A stretch of 64,000 nt of DNA, from the NCBI GenBank assembly GCA_033763455.1, contig JANRKO010000031.1:11564-75563 (forward strand), written 5' to 3'. Shown here in pieces: positions 34,031-40,900 of this stretch (position 1 is the stretch's first letter; each line of letters begins with the position of its first letter). This DNA is from Polyangiaceae bacterium (lineage in GTDB: Bacteria > Myxococcota_A > Polyangia > Polyangiales > Polyangiaceae). The notes beneath the pieces are model-generated. The model was given only the letters and a program-made list of their open reading frames with translations, did not search any database and was not told the origin of the DNA. The position numbers and the translations under genes were made by a program.

Positions 34031-34273
34031 ATGCCCAAGGCGAAGGTAGCTATCACGTTGGAACGCTCTACATTGGAGCGTTTAGACCGGCTGGTGGAAA
34101 GGGCGCGGTTCCTCAACCGTAGCCAGGCGGTCGAGATCGCGGTGGAAGAGAAACTCGCGCGGTTAGAGCGAAGTCGGCTCGCCGAAGAATGTGCCAAGCT
34201 CGATCCTACGGAAGAGCGGGCTCTCGCCAATTTGGGTTGGGAAGCAGACGGTGAAGCGTGGCCGGAATACTGA
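34031..34273 (+). CDS. Ribbon-helix-helix (CopG-type) antitoxin
   Basis: KVAITL..LERLDRLV..NRSQAVEIAV; acidic C-terminus; overlaps the toxin gene. Confidence 0.88.
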   Translation: MPKAKVAITLERSTLERLDRLVERARFLNRSQAVEIAVEEKLARLERSRLAEECAKLDPTEERALANLGWEADGEAWPEY

Positions 34274-34596
34274 GGGGCGAGCTGCGATGGGCAGACCTTG
34301 ATCCGACGCGTGGGCGTGAACAATCAGGTCTTCGGCCCGTGCTGATCTTGAGTCATGACGTTTTCAACGCGCGCTCGGGGACCGTTATCGCAATGGCTCT
34401 TACGAGCCAGCCTCAGCGTGCCGGGTTTCCTTTGACGCTGGAGCCGACGAGCTCGAAGCTAAAGAAGCCATCGTGGTTGAAGATCAGCCAGATCCGTACA
34501 CTCTCCGTGGAACGTATCGGGAAACGGCTGGGGCGACTGTCTGCGGAGGAGCTCAGCCAAGCCGTCGAAGGGCTCAATGAGATCATCGGCGCATGA
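34258..34596 (+). CDS. mazF: PemK/MazF family toxin
   Basis: RGELRWADLDPTRGREQSGLRPVLILS, LTSQ, SQIRTLSVERI. Confidence 0.93.
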   Translation: MAGILRGELRWADLDPTRGREQSGLRPVLILSHDVFNARSGTVIAMALTSQPQRAGFPLTLEPTSSKLKKPSWLKISQIRTLSVERIGKRLGRLSAEELSQAVEGLNEIIGA

Positions 34597-34833: not shown

Positions 34834-34883
34834 CAAGACCGAACAGAAAACGCCTACCCAAGGATTCTGAGAGGTTGGAAGGA

Positions 34884-35546
34884 ATGAAATACAATCATAT
34901 GTCCAATGGTGTCGTGGCATCTTGCAGGAGGGGGCTGCTCCTTGTCGCCCTGCTCATAGCCCCAATGGCGGCTACAAAGCCCGCCCAGGCGCAGGCCGCA
35001 AGCCACGCTGGCACAGGCTCGGAACGTCGGGAACGGCCGCCTGCAGCAGCACCACCAGTTACTCGCTGGTATGGGTACCAGACGGGGCTGAGCGATGTTG
35101 CGGCGGTGGGTATGATCTACGGAGCCGTGGCGACCTACGAATTCTGTTGGAACCTGGGGATCTCTTTGAATGATCACCCCGCTGGAGACGAAGGATCGGA
35201 GTCGTGCGACAACAGCAGCTCTACCGCTTTCGCTCTCGCGGGCGCGGGGACATACCTGTTCGGCGCTCCAACGGTCCACGCCCTCCACGGCTCTTGGGAG
35301 AAGGCGGGCTTGAGCTTTGGGATGCGTTCATTGCCAATCGTCCTAGGTGTGGGTTTGGCCCAATCAGAAGAAACGAATGGTTTAGCAGCAGCGGTGCTGA
35401 TTGCCGGTCCCTTGTTGGCAATGACCATCGACCACGCATGGCTTGCGCGCGAGGAAGCTAAGGCGCAAGGCAGTGCCTGGTATGTCGCCCCAACAGTGGA
35501 TCTGAAGAAAAGTGCCGCTCACCTGTCTGTTGGAGCCTCGTTCTGA
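34884..35546 (+). CDS. Exported/membrane hypothetical protein
   Basis: Signal peptide, RWYGYQT..D, P.VHALHG, C-terminal VAP..LSVGASF. Confidence 0.7.
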   Translation: MKYNHMSNGVVASCRRGLLLVALLIAPMAATKPAQAQAASHAGTGSERRERPPAAAPPVTRWYGYQTGLSDVAAVGMIYGAVATYEFCWNLGISLNDHPAGDEGSESCDNSSSTAFALAGAGTYLFGAPTVHALHGSWEKAGLSFGMRSLPIVLGVGLAQSEETNGLAAAVLIAGPLLAMTIDHAWLAREEAKAQGSAWYVAPTVDLKKSAAHLSVGASF

Positions 35547-35597: not shown

Positions 35598-36704
35598 CTA
35601 TGGCTCCGGCGCCCAGTTCGGGTTGCGGTAGTCCGCGTCCGCAGGCGTGACCAAACAAGGCACGCTCCCGACAGCTCGCGAAGTTACGGCGATCCGCGCA
35701 AGATTGTTCGCCGTATCGATTCGCTCATACGCGAGCACATCCACTGTGGCCCACGCAGGCTTGGCTAAGCTAAAGGGTTCCTGCGGAGTTACGCGCCGGC
35801 CGTCGCACGGGGCAGTAGCCGTGCCATAAGGGGTCGTCCAAATAGACGCACCTTCTGCCGCAAAGCCCGTGCTGCAATTCACCGAGTAGGCGACCTCGCG
35901 ACCGTCGGGCGAAACAGCAGGCATCTTGATGGTGGTGGTCGAATTCTGAACCACGGGCCTTATCGCCAGGTTATCAAGCCGAGCAGCGTTAAGCTCGTTG
36001 TTTCGATCGAACAGAACCTCCTCACCGTCAGCGCTGAATTCAGGCCAGAAATAAGCATTAAAGGTATCGAGACCGGTGGCAATCAGGCGCTCGCCGAGGC
36101 CATCCACACCGATAACGTAAACCGACGCCCCACTGTGAAACGCGATGAACCTGCCATCGCGCGAGAAGCCTGCCTGATCCGCCCCCTCCGGTCGCGACGT
36201 GAGCTGGCTTAAGCTGCCCGATGCCAGGTGCAGAAGGAAAATTTGCGGTTGGCCGTTCATGTCCGAGGTAAACACCAGCGACGCCCCGTCAGGTGAAAAG
36301 TTCGGCTCCGTTTCAGCGCTCGGGTAGTCCGTGACGCGCACGCGCTCGCTTCCATCGGCCCGAGAAATGAAAATGTCGCGATTGAAACCTAATGCGTCCG
36401 AATCGTACGCGATGCGCCGCGCGAGTATTTGCGCGCTGACACCACACTCTTGAGATGTCGCCGGCACGGAGGTGATACCCGATGGCGTGGGGCCAGGGCC
36501 CGCAGCGTTCGCCTTTCCACCGACGGCCGAGTTAACTTTGCCACCTGAGGGGCTGCCCGGGCTGGGCCCTCCCGGGGAGTTCAATGCCCCACCCGAGCCA
36601 GTGACAGCTGTATTCGCACCTGGCTCTGCTTCAATGTTTGTGGCACCGCCGCAGGCAGCAGCAAAAAGCGAGCTGAATATGATGGCGCAATATCTAAGCT
36701 TCAT
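35598..36704 (-). CDS. TolB-like PD40 beta-propeller lipoprotein
   Basis: Lipobox AAAC; repeats PNFSPDG, GFSRDG, PEFSADG, PAVSPDG. Confidence 0.88.
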   Translation of the reverse strand: MKLRYCAIIFSSLFAAACGGATNIEAEPGANTAVTGSGGALNSPGGPSPGSPSGGKVNSAVGGKANAAGPGPTPSGITSVPATSQECGVSAQILARRIAYDSDALGFNRDIFISRADGSERVRVTDYPSAETEPNFSPDGASLVFTSDMNGQPQIFLLHLASGSLSQLTSRPEGADQAGFSRDGRFIAFHSGASVYVIGVDGLGERLIATGLDTFNAYFWPEFSADGEEVLFDRNNELNAARLDNLAIRPVVQNSTTTIKMPAVSPDGREVAYSVNCSTGFAAEGASIWTTPYGTATAPCDGRRVTPQEPFSLAKPAWATVDVLAYERIDTANNLARIAVTSRAVGSVPCLVTPADADYRNPNWAPEP

Positions 36705-36891
36705 TGGTGTGCTCCCTCCGAACGTGTTTGGGAATGTCCAATATAGCATGCTCCAACAACGATATCAGGCAGGAAAAAACCAATGAAACTGTGCAGCAAG
36801 ATCTGTGGACCTCTAGGGGCAACCCTAGTGTCGGCTCGGGAGCGCACAACCTCGGTAAGTTCGGCGGCTATACGCTTGAGGTTCTGTGGCT

Positions 36892-38085
36892 TCAGTGTTC
36901 CTTGGCGTCGACCCTTGTGGTGGCAATCTTTCGAATGTCGTCGATCCCGTACCGGAGCGCAGCGATGCGTTCGAGTCCGAAGCCCGCGCCGAGAGCGGTT
37001 CGTCTAGCGGTTGCGCCAAGCGCCTGCAGCACCCACGGAGCGTATTCGCCCAGGGCGATCACTTCGGACCAATCGTCTTTCTCGCGCACGTCGATGCTGA
37101 AGGCACGGCTGCACATTGGGTAGGACGTTGGCGAGACACGCACCTCGCGGCCTGGCAGCACGTTATCTAGCGCTTTCAAGAGGCGTCCCGCGAGCCAGAA
37201 ACCGTCGATCGTGTCTTTGTCGTCGATCGCGAAGAGCTCGAGCTGGTGGAACGCTTCGAGATGCGTCGCGCTTTCTTTCTCCTTGCGATAGACCTTGCCA
37301 GACGCCCACAACCGCTGCGGCGAACCGTTGAGTTTGATCGTTGTCAACAGCGGTAGCGTCAGGTCGTAGCGCAACACGTGCTCGCCAGAGATGCGTTGCA
37401 GCGCTGATCGCTCGATGTAAACGGCGTCTCCACCAAGCGCTTTTTCCGTTGCGTCGAGGTCGAGGTCTTCAGGTACCTCGACACGCGTGAAACCAGGGAA
37501 TGCTTCGTTGATCGCCGCGAGAGTCAGCGCCACCGGATTTCCTGCGATGTCGCTGAGGCGTGGCCGCGCGAGCAGCTCGATGATACTAGTCGGCAAGTCG
37601 CCGGGGATTTTTAGATCTCGTTGCTCTTCCATTTCTATTTCCTTTCGCAGCTTCTCCCGGATACGCTGCAAACGTTTGCGTTCCGTGGCGGACCCGATTT
37701 GTAGACCACCGTAGTAGTGCGCTTCGCAAAGTTGGCGTTCTTCGCGACTGAGTGTCAGCAGTGCGCGAGACAGAAGGCGTTGCTGCGCCTCCGTCCACCG
37801 CGTTTCGTCCTCGTCGAGGAATGGCGGCGTTTCGGCGTCATGGAAATCGACCCACTGCGCACGGCTGCGTTTCTTGCGGTTGAGCGCAGTCGTTACGACG
37901 ATGCGGCGCAGCCAGCCTGGAAAGGCGCGATCCTCCTGGAGCTGCGCAAGGCGGCGAAACGCCGTGGCGTACGCGTCCTGAACGACATCGCGGGCATCAC
38001 TCTCGCGGCGCACGATACGCCACGCAACCGCATACGCCATTGCGTAAGTGGCACGTACGTGCGTTTCGAAATCCGCGAGCTCCAT
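36892..38085 (-). CDS. ECF sigma factor fused to a class II aaRS (PheRS-alpha-like) catalytic domain
   Basis: Sigma2: DARDVVQDAY..AFPGWLRRIV; shortened sigma4; motif 2 GKVYRKE..ATHLEAFHQLE; motif 3 GAGFGLERIAALRYGIDDIR. Confidence 0.9.
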   Translation of the reverse strand: MELADFETHVRATYAMAYAVAWRIVRRESDARDVVQDAYATAFRRLAQLQEDRAFPGWLRRIVVTTALNRKKRSRAQWVDFHDAETPPFLDEDETRWTEAQQRLLSRALLTLSREERQLCEAHYYGGLQIGSATERKRLQRIREKLRKEIEMEEQRDLKIPGDLPTSIIELLARPRLSDIAGNPVALTLAAINEAFPGFTRVEVPEDLDLDATEKALGGDAVYIERSALQRISGEHVLRYDLTLPLLTTIKLNGSPQRLWASGKVYRKEKESATHLEAFHQLELFAIDDKDTIDGFWLAGRLLKALDNVLPGREVRVSPTSYPMCSRAFSIDVREKDDWSEVIALGEYAPWVLQALGATARRTALGAGFGLERIAALRYGIDDIRKIATTRVDAKEH

Positions 38086-38119
38086 GCCCTAAGGACACAA
38101 GCTCCGGCTCAGTGTGACA
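38086..38119 (-). promoter_or_regulatory. Putative ECF-type promoter TGTCACA-N15-TGTC, probably leaderless
   Basis: TGTCACA at 38119-38113, TGTC at 38097-38094, 8 nt to the ATG, no good RBS. Confidence 0.55.
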
Positions 38120-38292
38120 ATCTTTTTCGGACCCGATAGCTGCAGCGCCATCGAAACCCCGCAGGCAATCCCGAGCTTACATTGCTCCAACTTGCACCCG
38201 GGAGCCGAGTCGAGCTAGCGACAGTCCGACCAAAATGAAGTGCACTTCGGAATAGTCTTGACTATTTTGAAGTGTGATTCATTATAGTCAAG

Positions 38293-39456
38293 GTGAAGAG
38301 GCAGCAGGAATCAGCGCTGAGGGCAGATTTGGCCAAGAAGCTAGTGCTCTTGGCCGGGCCACGCCAAGTTGGAAAAACAACCCTCTCCCGGTCCTTGAGT
38401 CCCCACCACTCCTATCTGAACTACGATAGTTCTGAGGATCGGAGGTTGCTCACAGCCAAGGAGTGGGATCGTGACGTTTCGCTCGTGATCTTTGACGAAC
38501 TCCACAAGATGCGAAAATGGAAAACTTGGCTCAAAGGTATCTATGACACTGAAGGGATCCCCCCGGGGATCCTGGTTACCGGTTCCGCGCACCTTGAGGT
38601 ATTCCGTCGCGGGGGCGACTCGTTGGCAGGTCGCTACTTCCTTCACCGTTTGCATCCATTTACCGTTCGTGAGCTTGGGCGACAGTTCGAGGCAGAGGAT
38701 GCACTAGAGCGCATCCTCACGGTTGGAGGGTTTCCCGAGCCTTTCCTGAATGGGGACGAACAATATGCCCGGCGCTGGCGAAGAAGCCATCTGGACGTGA
38801 TTCTGCGGCAGGATCTGCTGGATCTAGAGAAGGTGCGAGAAATTCGAAGCATCGAGGTTCTGGTCGAGTTGCTGCTCCTGCGAGTAGGCTCGACGGTATC
38901 ATTGAGTTCACTCGCACGGGACTTGCAGACGTCAGCACACACTGTAAAGCATTGGCTACAGATCCTCGAAAGCCTGTACGTCCTATTTCCCGTTCGTCCG
39001 TACCATCACAACATCGCGCGAAGCCTGCTCAAGGAATCAAAGTACTACTTCTACGACACTGGCGCGGTAGCTGACGCCGGGGCGGACCCGGGTGCGGTGC
39101 TTGAAAATGCTGTTGCGTGCGCGCTCCTTCGGGAACTTCACCTTGCCGAAGATCTCACCGGGAAAAAGGCGCAACTCTGCTTTCTGCGCGACAAAGAGAA
39201 GCGCGAAGTAGACTTTCTCCCAGTGCTCGATAAGAAGCCGCGTGAGCTTGTGGAGGTGAAGCTCAATGATGCAACTTTCTCGAAATCATTGCTCTATTTT
39301 CAAGATTTGTTGCCTACGGTGCCCGCAAGGCAGGTGGTAGGCGGCCTCAAGCAAGCCAAGGGCAGGGCGGAGCGCAACGCGCGTATGGTGCCGGCCGCCA
39401 AGTACCTGGAGGCACTTTCTTTTGTTTCGCCCAAGCTCCCCGCAACGTCACCGTAG
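38293..39456 (+). CDS. AAA_14/DUF4143 ATP-binding protein
   Basis: GPRQVGKT, FDELHK, VTGSA, DSLAGR, GGFPEP, KYYFYDTG, EVDF..VEVK. Confidence 0.93.
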   Translation: MKRQQESALRADLAKKLVLLAGPRQVGKTTLSRSLSPHHSYLNYDSSEDRRLLTAKEWDRDVSLVIFDELHKMRKWKTWLKGIYDTEGIPPGILVTGSAHLEVFRRGGDSLAGRYFLHRLHPFTVRELGRQFEAEDALERILTVGGFPEPFLNGDEQYARRWRRSHLDVILRQDLLDLEKVREIRSIEVLVELLLLRVGSTVSLSSLARDLQTSAHTVKHWLQILESLYVLFPVRPYHHNIARSLLKESKYYFYDTGAVADAGADPGAVLENAVACALLRELHLAEDLTGKKAQLCFLRDKEKREVDFLPVLDKKPRELVEVKLNDATFSKSLLYFQDLLPTVPARQVVGGLKQAKGRAERNARMVPAAKYLEALSFVSPKLPATSP

Positions 39457-39506
39457 TGGGCGGATGGGCCGCAATTGAATACTGGTGTCGCAACGTGTGC
39501 CACCGC

Positions 39507-39751: not shown

Positions 39752-40900
39752 TTGATGACCCCTTGGTCTGGACCCACGAAGGCGCCCGTGCCAAACCTCC
39801 GGGCTGTGGCGCTCAGACGTATCGTAAAAGCCACCCTCTTCTCCGCTATATCGGCGAGCGCTGTGGTTGGTAAGGCAGCAGCCGCCAAAGCGGCATCACT
39901 CTCTGTTGAGTGGGCGCCGCAGGCTATCTGCACGCCGCCTGCCGACCTTGAACGGCTCGTATCTCCATTGCTTGGGCAACGTCCCGATGCTCTCCTCAAA
40001 GAGGATTTGCGAGTGCGGTTATCCCTCGCTCAAAATACCGCACAGCAAGCGCCTGTCGCGCCAGGCGCTCCCGCAGCCCCAAGCTCGAGCCCAAGCCTCT
40101 GGGTGTTGATTGCCATGCACTCGCCCAGCAGTTCCTTTGAGCGCAGATTGGGGGCTCCAGATTGTGCTCAGGCGGCGGAGGCCACTGCCCTGGTGATTGC
40201 GCTAGCGATTGATCCACTTGCTCTGGTGCAAACACGTGACGGCTTGGTAGCTCCGCCGACAACAACGCCCGGCGCGACAACCCCAGGTACGCTTCCGCAA
40301 TATGTCGCACCCGTTGCGCCGCCCCTGGCCGTGCCGGTGACGGACAAATCGACCACTGTTCGCCCCAAAACAACACTGGATCGTGAGCCCCTGATACGTG
40401 CCTTCCACCTAGAAGCTGGCCCGGCATTCGACGCAGGTACTCTGCCAAAACCGCGAGTGGGAATTTCCGCTGCGGTAGCGCTGAGCTTGAGTGCGCTCCG
40501 GGCCGAGGTTGGTTTTGTTTGGTTACCGAGCACCAGCGAACCCATCGTGAACAGCAACGGACGTATTCAGGCGTCTCTTTCCGCGGGCCAAGCACGGCTT
40601 TGTTGGTTCACCGGTTCGAAAGCACACGGTGCCATCAGCCTCGGTCTCGAAGGCGGCGAACTCAGCGCTGAAAGTGTCAACGTGACTACACCCGGCAGCG
40701 GCTCAACGTTTTGGGTGGCAGGCTTGCTTGGGGCACGTGCAGACTTCGAATTGGTAACGAACACTCTTGCGCTCTGGGCACGGCCTGAGCTCGTGGTGCC
40801 TTTCGCGCGGCGAGGTTTCACCGTGGTAGGGCCAGGCAGCACGTACGAGCCTTCAGTTGTATCGGGGCGAGGCACCCTAGGGTTGCAGGGCACATTCTGA
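39752..40900 (+). CDS. Exported protein with probable C-terminal beta-barrel (same architecture as 11522..12532)
   Basis: WAP..C, FERRLGAPDCAQAAEATALVIALAIDP, Pro/Thr linker, amphipathic strands, terminal Phe. Confidence 0.7.
   Translation: MMTPWSGPTKAPVPNLRAVALRRIVKATLFSAISASAVVGKAAAAKAASLSVEWAPQAICTPPADLERLVSPLLGQRPDALLKEDLRVRLSLAQNTAQQAPVAPGAPAAPSSSPSLWVLIAMHSPSSSFERRLGAPDCAQAAEATALVIALAIDPLALVQTRDGLVAPPTTTPGATTPGTLPQYVAPVAPPLAVPVTDKSTTVRPKTTLDREPLIRAFHLEAGPAFDAGTLPKPRVGISAAVALSLSALRAEVGFVWLPSTSEPIVNSNGRIQASLSAGQARLCWFTGSKAHGAISLGLEGGELSAESVNVTTPGSGSTFWVAGLLGARADFELVTNTLALWARPELVVPFARRGFTVVGPGSTYEPSVVSGRGTLGLQGTF

Follow-up and report, generated by a model that had tools for sequence, protein, structure and literature searches.

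ECF sigma factors with a fused PheS-like catalytic core: a conserved family viewed from a Polyangiaceae locus

Fused extensions are the second most common mode of control among extracytoplasmic function (ECF) sigma factors, where they are found in 19 groups (according to the sections of PMC7826278 drawn on here). ECF41 proteins are regulated by such a fused C-terminal domain, partial truncation giving 20- to 120-fold hyperactivity and full deletion a loss of activity (as described in the part of PMC3426412 used here). In ECF41 (Ecf41Bli, Ecf41Rsp), ECF42 (tetratricopeptide repeats, TPR) and ECF238/CorE (Cys-rich tail), sigma2 and sigma4 come first and the fused domain follows. The same order is found in the protein considered here, P0001, which is encoded on the minus strand at 36892..38085 of a 64,000-nucleotide stretch of DNA from Polyangiaceae bacterium (GenBank assembly GCA_033763455.1, contig JANRKO010000031.1, positions 11,564 to 75,563; the whole of this stretch is referred to below as the window). 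The whole open reading frame (ORF), delimited with the ORF list, Pfam and homologues, encodes an ECF sigma factor followed by a PheS-like catalytic core. Like the ECF41-type groups, the family to which P0001 belongs is without a cognate anti-sigma gene, but its extension is neither SnoaL-like nor TPR nor Cys-rich; it is the catalytic core of PheS, the alpha chain of bacterial phenylalanyl-tRNA synthetase (PheRS).

The class II synthetase core has been reused for sensing or regulation, and not for tRNA charging, in the HisRS-like domain of GCN2 and in HisZ. Those two differ from the present case in being derived from HisRS and in having as partners a kinase and ATP phosphoribosyltransferase (ATP-PRT), respectively, and GCN2 senses uncharged tRNA via an anticodon-binding region that has no counterpart in P0001. 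In BirA a class II-synthetase-like, adenylate-forming domain accompanies a DNA-binding module, and the enzyme-bound acyl-adenylate is the effector for transcription. The likeness of P0001 to BirA is in logic only, as BirA is a winged-helix repressor with an adenylating domain of another family, and no homology is claimed.

An earlier reading of the window made from its letters (the sequence-only reading) had taken P0001 for a one-component regulator and had known of no characterised example of such a fusion. No characterised sigma-PheS fusion came to light in a literature search either, one that covered PMC7826278 in its main text. That main text contains 0 mentions of tRNA, synthetase or PF01409, and the main texts of PMC7671368 and PMC8999054 make no mention of tRNA or synthetase. 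The family is uncharacterised, though its proteins are already in databases under automatic names. The interpretation favoured here, which we judge about as apt to be right as wrong, is that its members are autoregulated one-component ECF sigma factors that would be gated by a ligand-binding, and possibly adenylate-forming, PheS-like domain.

The fusion family and its promoter

The ORF for P0001 consists of 397 codons and a stop, unbroken between the domains in the translation of 36892-38085, and as an in-frame TAG is present two codons 5′ of the ATG, the N-terminus is not extendable. The length, coordinates and lack of interruption were correctly given in the sequence-only reading; the strand has had to be corrected to minus. 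The sigma-PheS fusion is a genuine conserved architecture and not an accident, and the full-length homologues that had been called for were found in many genomes. PF01409 and PF04542 occur together in 117 of the 120 best matches (query included) in a collection of 5.8 billion proteins, and most of these 120 are 419-432 aa long. An exhaustive HMMER search over 1.84 billion cluster representatives gave 54 matches at E<=1e-30, with dozens of full-length fusion representatives of 25-58% identity in that collection, and in the ESM Atlas three clusters, of 57, 92 and 152 members, have this architecture. Relatives are encoded in 91 stretches of species-representative genomes, from which 80 loci were kept; by label 56 are from Acidobacteriota, 14 from Myxococcota, 6 from Planctomycetota and 4 from 'proteobacteria', in a set that is biased to the subfamily of the window protein because it was gathered with the 12 sequences closest to P0001. 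One carrier, Paludibaculum fermentans T20B24 (locus L027), is in culture.

Pairwise identity in the sigma part and pairwise identity in the C-terminal part rise and fall together (Mantel r 0.78, a value reached in 0 of 2000 permutations). In a tree of the C-terminal domain three true PheS proteins form one clade with 100% support on a long branch, which is compatible with one ancient fusion and does not contradict a single origin. The window protein is in a 21-sequence clade, also with 100% support, termed subfamily I; the remaining 17 sequences, termed subfamily II, are more PheS-like. P0250 clusters, with 99% support, beside P0154, which is a fusion protein, and is itself probably a piece of one. 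In one metagenome-assembled genome (Polyangiaceae isolate SPRUCE 23) the fusion gene is present in two different versions, at loci L008 and L010, so genomes can carry paralogues; the L008 match begins only at query residue 64. Another family member, P0230 (579 aa), has a C-terminal tail of about 160 aa without an assigned domain.

Clustering of all ORFs of at least 90 aa from 81 loci, in which only the largest neighbour clusters were named with Pfam, revealed no conserved partner gene: the widely shared clusters are shadow ORFs of the fusion gene only. No conserved anti-sigma is present among the neighbour clusters of these loci, and pheT forms no shared cluster among the largest ones, which were named, nor does it adjoin the gene in the window. 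The sequence-only reading had remarked on the absence of an adjoining anti-sigma gene and pheT; the ORF list and Pfam naming of the neighbours gave the same outcome for the window, and the survey shows for the family, too, that neither an anti-sigma nor any other partner is conserved.

Directly 5′ of the gene is a predicted ECF-type promoter, GTCACACTGAGCCGGAGCTTGTGTCCT, at 38092..38118 on the minus strand, found by pattern search. It consists of a −35 element GTCACA, a 15-nt spacer and a −10 element TGTCCT, both elements being perfect, and is the one match to GTCACR-N15-17-TGTCYT in the 64 kb of the window, where 0.05 would be expected. Only 6 nt separate the end of the promoter from the ATG at 38085, so that the mRNA probably has no leader or hardly any. 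The motif is 8-15 nt from the predicted start at several Polyangiaceae loci, where start predictions are approximate. This arrangement suggests that the mRNAs of the fusion family are leaderless or near-leaderless.

The promoter is a feature of the family and not of the window alone. The strict form GTCACA-N13-19-GTC[TC]T is present on the coding strand of 47 of 69 upstream regions and on the reverse strand of 0 of 69, the mean for shuffled sequence being 0.025 (200 shuffles), and a TCACG...TGTCYT variant, counted without a control of its own, is present in 18 of the 22 remaining regions. Over the 80 loci (1.14 Mb, both strands) GTCAC[AG]-N15-17-TGTC[CT]T has 70 matches, all of them directly upstream of the fusion gene, and none elsewhere in that sequence; the spacer is 15 nt at 70 of 71 promoter sites. 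From its position and conservation we infer that the fusion protein transcribes its own gene from this promoter, that is, positive autoregulation.

The experimentally defined promoter of ECF41 is TGTCACA-n16-CGTC/TGTC (in the part of PMC3426412 used here), and the likeness is considerable: the −35 TGTCACA is the same, the −10 element has GTC and the spacing is similar, with the fusion-family spacer one base shorter. However, the promoter here precedes the sigma gene itself, whereas the targets described for ECF41 in the same part of PMC3426412 are neighbouring COE genes (carboxymuconolactone decarboxylase, oxidoreductase, epimerase), and no COE neighbour is conserved among the 81 loci. The Pfam scan detected no SnoaL family, the extension that characterises ECF41, in P0001. 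On these two counts, extension and neighbours, P0001 would fall outside ECF41. ECF220 ('Proteobacteria, C-terminal extension, TM proteins at +1/-1') was considered as an identity and not adopted, the family being without conserved transmembrane neighbours and mostly acidobacterial.

The PheS-like core and its predicted ligand site

Pfam matches residues 10-75 of P0001 to Sigma70_r2 (E 4.6e-9; 36.4 bits, cut-off 24) and residues 222-393 to tRNA-synt_2d (E 6.4e-26; 91.8 bits, cut-off 19.8), with no match to Sigma70_r4 or r4_2 even at E<=1. Two of the three domains that the sequence-only reading had expected from such a scan were recovered in this way, and Sigma70_r4 was not. With the NCBIfam profiles P0001 scores 43.9 bits for sigma70-ECF TIGR02937 (cut-off 42.9), and remains below the cut-off for the pheS equivalog TIGR00468 (88.9 bits against 237.45) and for NF003210 (58.4 bits against 350). 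The profile of the family as a whole covers, at its positions 2-177, a complete ECF sigma factor (SigH, SigW, sigmaE; E 4e-38 to 3e-32), and it matches the complete core of E. coli PheS, residues 107-317, at E 1e-48.

The PheS-like class II catalytic core occupies residues 166-397 (36895..37590, minus strand), as delimited by AlphaFold2, Foldseek and the family profile. Family-invariant L171, P175 and P184 are at its start, and in the profile alignment with E. coli PheS the NPV of P0001 aligns with the HPV that opens the PheS catalytic core. Among solved structures, the C-terminal half is most closely related to bacterial PheRS alpha chains. An AlphaFold2 model of P0001, built on the 132-sequence alignment, has a mean predicted local distance difference test score (pLDDT) of 89.4 and a predicted template modelling score (pTM) of 0.71, with pLDDT block means of 90-98 for the core at about residues 171-390. 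Structure prediction was one of the checks named in advance, and the model's C-terminal portion superposes by Foldseek on E. coli PheS alpha (6oz5_A, 3pco_A) over 212 columns with a root mean square deviation of 2.4 Å and a template modelling score of 0.76 by target. The profile alignment pairs the class II motifs picked out in the sequence-only reading, GKVYRKE..FHQLE and GFGLERIA, with motif 2 and motif 3, respectively, of the E. coli protein.

The likeness to PheS thus extends to the fold of the catalytic core, the order of motifs 1, 2 and 3 and the ATP-contact residues. By contrast, nothing conserved in the fusion family corresponds to the E. coli loop GHHPARADHDTF. Phe_tRNA-synt_N, the N-terminal coiled-coil arm by which PheS binds tRNA, is matched in the true PheS proteins P0257 and P0262 and is absent from P0001 and the other fusion proteins scanned; in effect, sigma2-sigma4 stand in for that arm. 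The absence of an anticodon-binding domain, on the other hand, is uninformative because bacterial PheRS has that domain in its beta subunit. P0001 is not a PheS: its score, the N-terminal arm, the pocket described below and the lack of PheT linkage all set it apart. It resembles the NCBIfam family NF051887 ('PheS-related mystery ligase SrmL') in being a PheS-derived paralogue, and its residues 257-389 match that profile at E 8e-23, but with 81 bits against a cut-off of 300 and over profile positions 97-230 of 349 only. The name 'SrmL' was not found in the literature searched.

The contacts to ATP and adenylate have been retained. Roles of Arg204, Phe216, Arg321, Phe258 and Phe260 in T. thermophilus PheS are described in the part of PMC8555319 drawn on here. 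Motif 2 of P0001 is at residues 263-283 (GKVYRKE...FHQLE; 37237..37299, minus strand), where the profile alignment equates R267 with E. coli R195, the motif 2 Arg, F279 with F206, which stacks on adenine, Q281 with Q208 and E283 with E210. In the 132-sequence alignment (A3) these are conserved in 131, 130 and 126 sequences for the first three, and E283 is E in 121 and D in 11. Motif 3, at residues 366-385 (GAGFGLERIAALRYGIDDIR; 36931..36990, minus strand), is placed by alignment to E. coli A294...R301; its Arg, R373, corresponds to R301 and is conserved in 130/132.

The pocket for the amino acid has fared otherwise. Its strand, residues 322-325 (37111..37122, minus strand), is YPMC in place of the FPFT of PheS (E. 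coli F248-P249-F250-T251). Y322, the counterpart of F248, is Y in 109 of 132 sequences and F in 14; the second position (E. coli P249) is P in 113/132; M324, facing F250, is M in 103/132; and C325, facing T251, is C in 110/132. At the start of motif 3, G366 replaces E. coli A294 and is G in 122/132 and in 21/21 members of subfamily I. T251 and A294 are the positions that set specificity for phenylalanine in E. coli PheS. Subfamily I has M or L at 324, and C325 in 15/21, while subfamily II is nearer to PheS, with F at 324 in 6/17, V or T at 325 in 10/17 and A at 366 in 4/17. Near-invariant ATP contacts together with a changed pocket point to an adenylate site that is under selection and a specificity pocket that has been rebuilt. 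With F replaced by M, T/V by C and A by G in its pocket, subfamily I probably has a ligand other than plain phenylalanine.

The mechanism envisaged in the favoured interpretation is of an old, vertically co-evolving ECF family in which the fused C-terminal domain would take the place of a separate anti-sigma, and which would transcribe its own gene from the ECF41-like GTCACR-N15-TGTCYT promoter. The PheS-like domain would bind ATP and an amino-acid-like ligand, and possibly make, and then hold, the aminoacyl-adenylate. Occupancy by ligand would alter the constraint on sigma2/sigma4 and so switch sigma activity on or off, in mechanism like the ECF41-type fused regulatory domain and in logic like BirA. 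Ligand binding, gating, the direction of the switch and the reading by the protein of its own promoter are all put forward from comparison of sequences.

An unlikely alternative, yet the one that survives best, is that the PheS-like domain is above all an active ligase, so that the protein would be a trigger enzyme. An amino acid would be adenylated and handed on to an acceptor (tRNA, carrier protein, small molecule or protein), and through the sigma part the enzyme and its regulon would be expressed in step with that chemistry, as with the bifunctional enzyme-regulators BirA and PutA. The near-invariant Arg residues of motifs 2 and 3, the adenine-stacking Phe and FHQxE are the catalytic set of a class II synthetase, and all 38 members of the 38-sequence alignment (A1) match NF051887, below its cut-off. 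Further chemistry on an activated amino acid is suggested by P0186 (596 aa), where a GNAT domain follows the PheS-like core, but this Acetyltransf_7 match is in one sequence (27.7 bits; cut-off 27), and the PDB matches of the tail are weak (E 0.02 or worse), the top one being a spurious repeat protein. Against a ligase are the lack, in the 81 loci, of any acceptor gene (carrier protein, tRNA, transferase) conserved beside the fusion gene, the absence of the tRNA-binding arm and the lack of an adjoining pheT in the window. The enzyme and the favoured one-component sigma factor overlap in any case, as catalysis and sensing are not mutually exclusive.

One elaboration of the favoured interpretation goes further, and is correspondingly speculative, being rather improbable as it stands: a self-adenylating sigma factor in which bound aminoacyl-AMP, or a captured natural adenylate mimic or PheRS-directed antibiotic, would serve as a co-activator that frees sigma2/sigma4. 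For the antibiotic the domain would act as a decoy of its target.

The shortened sigma4 of the window copy and the weighing of the readings

The sigma2 domain of P0001 (residues 1-76; 37858..38085, minus strand) is predicted by AlphaFold2 to have three helices, H3-25, H28-44 and H52-74, with pLDDT of about 90 or more, and includes the Pfam match at 10-75. It is followed by a linker, residues 77-98 (37792..37857, minus strand), that is predicted to be disordered (pLDDT <50 at 77-83 and 87-90), and by sigma4, residues 99-155 (37621..37791, minus strand). A second linker, short and flexible, at residues 156-165 (37591..37620, minus strand; pLDDT <50 at 158-161), leads to the PheS-like core.

In alignments A1 and A3 and in the AlphaFold2 model this sigma4 is truncated, with one helix fewer than the usual four. 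Nine residues are deleted near residues 126-130 (about nt 37704/37705) in 3 of 132 sequences, P0001, P0002 and P0003, which are 78-80% identical to each other and are also without some 17 N-terminal residues. The predicted sigma4 helices of P0001 are H99-109, H114-124 and H133-155; those of the canonical member P0058 (AlphaFold2, pTM 0.73) are H116-126, H131-142, H147-153 and H158-185. In P0058 the helix-turn-helix (HTH) begins with helix 147-153, which is the one that P0001 has lost. In the N-terminal region P0058 has four helices (H2-16, H20-42, H45-61, H72-91), and P0001 is without the extra N-terminal one. The recognition helix ERKRLQRIREKL is retained, with family-invariant R138 and R143. 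A complete sigma4 HTH is thus absent from P0001 and present in the family, the profile of which spans SigH, SigW and sigmaE, and P0154 matches Sigma70_r4_2 in Pfam at E 5e-16. Where the sequence-only reading had seen an ECF sigma in the first ~150 aa, sigma2 is as described and sigma4, with its 9-residue deletion, is not a normal one.

Could the window copy no longer be a working sigma factor? It might be a decaying gene, or a decoy that binds the core of RNA polymerase or competes with a canonical paralogue. The restriction of the deletion to 3 of 132 family members, the lack of any Sigma70_r4 match at E<=1 and a pLDDT of 79-88 for what remains of sigma4, against 90-96 in canonical P0058, are in keeping with this. 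However, three diverged sequences from different sources share the deletion with their ORFs intact; the recognition helix and its two arginines are kept, as is the self-promoter; and sigma2 and sigma4 have been conserved to the same degree as the C-terminal domain, and to the same degree as in canonical pairs. Between P0001, P0002 and P0003 identity is 0.80-0.84 for sigma2, 0.70-0.80 for sigma4 and 0.81-0.87 for the C-terminal domain, and for 126 canonical pairs of similar divergence the means are 0.78, 0.80 and 0.79, so there is no sign of decay in the deletion lineage. Loss of sigma function is therefore quite improbable, and a decoy role would still be a function. The comparison indicates that P0001 and its two close relatives are a derived lineage that is still kept by selection.

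Least probable of those considered is an interaction module without a small ligand, in which the class II dimer interface would homodimerise, or bind PheT in place of PheS, making the availability of sigma a readout of how PheRS is assembled or of the state of translation, or else doing no more than sequester sigma. The domain retains the complete fold of the PheS core, the part that in PheRS pairs with the beta subunit, and a Pro-Glu in the motif 1 region is conserved in subfamily I (P205 20/21, E206 20/21), but Pro is at 205 in 0/17 of subfamily II, no locus cluster has pheT linkage and the near-invariant ATP-contact residues are left unexplained.

The autoregulated one-component sigma factor remains the preferred interpretation, and a number of points weigh against it. 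Close relatives dominate A3, so the counts out of 132 overstate independent conservation, and the split of the 38 sequences, with a few losses in subfamily II, is the fairer view. Conserved catalytic residues would be expected of an enzyme no less than of a sensor. The promoter motif does not recur in the window or in any 8-kb flank, and no regulon is indicated. The loci with the promoter are 33-63% identical to the query, and the result is taken as applying to the query's own part of the family. The window protein is itself without a helix of the sigma4 HTH and a Sigma70_r4 match, and may bind −35 DNA poorly; the window promoter could be read by a canonical paralogue instead. Control of sigma activity by the C-terminal domain is proposed from sequence and fold comparison, and with pTM of 0.71 for P0001 and 0.73 for P0058, and linkers of low confidence, the models establish no fixed contact between the sigma and C-terminal parts.

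What has come through of the one-component sigma proposed at the outset is the conserved fusion without a partner, the promoter of its own and the kept adenylate residues; phenylalanine is no obvious ligand. Of the ligands that had been listed for sensing, an amino acid, an adenylate, tRNA or an antibiotic, tRNA has become less likely because the tRNA-binding N-terminal arm of PheS is replaced by the sigma part.

Two cysteines deserve separate mention. C120, in sigma4 (~37726-37728), and C325, in the ligand pocket (~37111-37113), are the sole cysteine columns conserved in more than 30% of the 132 sequences; both are present in 99, C325 alone in 11, C120 alone in 3 and neither in 19. A coupling of the two was considered and set aside, these counts not being separable from shared ancestry. 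A redox or metal role for them is conceivable.

Genomic surroundings and significance

In the window the gene for P0001 is followed by that for a PD40-repeat protein (35598-36749, minus strand), and its upstream, divergent neighbour encodes an AAA_14/DUF4143 ATPase (38293-39456, plus strand). The intergenic region, 38086-38292, contains a 16-pair inverted repeat at 38241-38276 with two facing TTGACT hexamers, each within a sigma-70-like promoter match, and the ATPase gene has a GTG start at 38293, 8 nt past such a match. The GC content is 0.55-0.57 across 38000-39500 and about 0.60 in the surroundings. An operator is one possible explanation, the edge of an inserted element another. Farther away, at 34031-34596 on the plus strand, overlapping ORFs encode a ribbon-helix-helix protein of 80 aa (RHH_1, E 2.6e-6) and a PemK/MazF-like toxin of 112 aa (E 9e-29), which make up a type II toxin-antitoxin pair. 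The ORFs at 34875-35546 (plus strand, 223 aa, with a hydrophobic N-terminus) and 39752-40900 (plus strand, 382 aa) have no Pfam match at E<=0.001.

Among the other loci, nine from Acidobacteriota (L009, L011, L012, L013, L014, L015, L020, L041 and L045) have the fusion gene inside a DNA-repair-like block, with a 5′-3′ exonuclease encoded upstream of it on its own strand and, immediately downstream of it, an ATP-dependent DNA ligase, followed by an Lhr-type helicase and DJ-1/PfpI. This block was not accepted as a functional linkage, being confined to closely related loci and so probably a matter of synteny. Nor were MacB/FtsX permeases accepted as partners; they occur in 18 loci at variable positions on either strand, which was taken to be due to their abundance.

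ECF sigma factors rank among the main signalling systems of bacteria, and of the groups with fused extensions only a minority have a known signal. The family described here is common in Acidobacteriota, Myxococcota and Planctomycetota; these phyla are abundant in soil, and few of their regulators have been characterised. As the chemistry of PheS is understood in atomic detail, the question of the ligand is directly testable, and the sharply defined promoter and the availability of at least one cultured carrier suit reporter assays. The sigma factor and its promoter could also provide an orthogonal, small-molecule-controlled pair for synthetic biology. The family would extend the short list of tRNA-synthetase paralogues that are reused for regulation. 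If the self-adenylating version were true, transcription would directly report an amino acid and ATP, or an antibiotic against a tRNA synthetase; no earlier sigma factor would have been gated by the active site of such an enzyme, and the lineage of the window protein, in which the pocket is rebuilt and sigma4 shortened, would represent a yet more specialised version.

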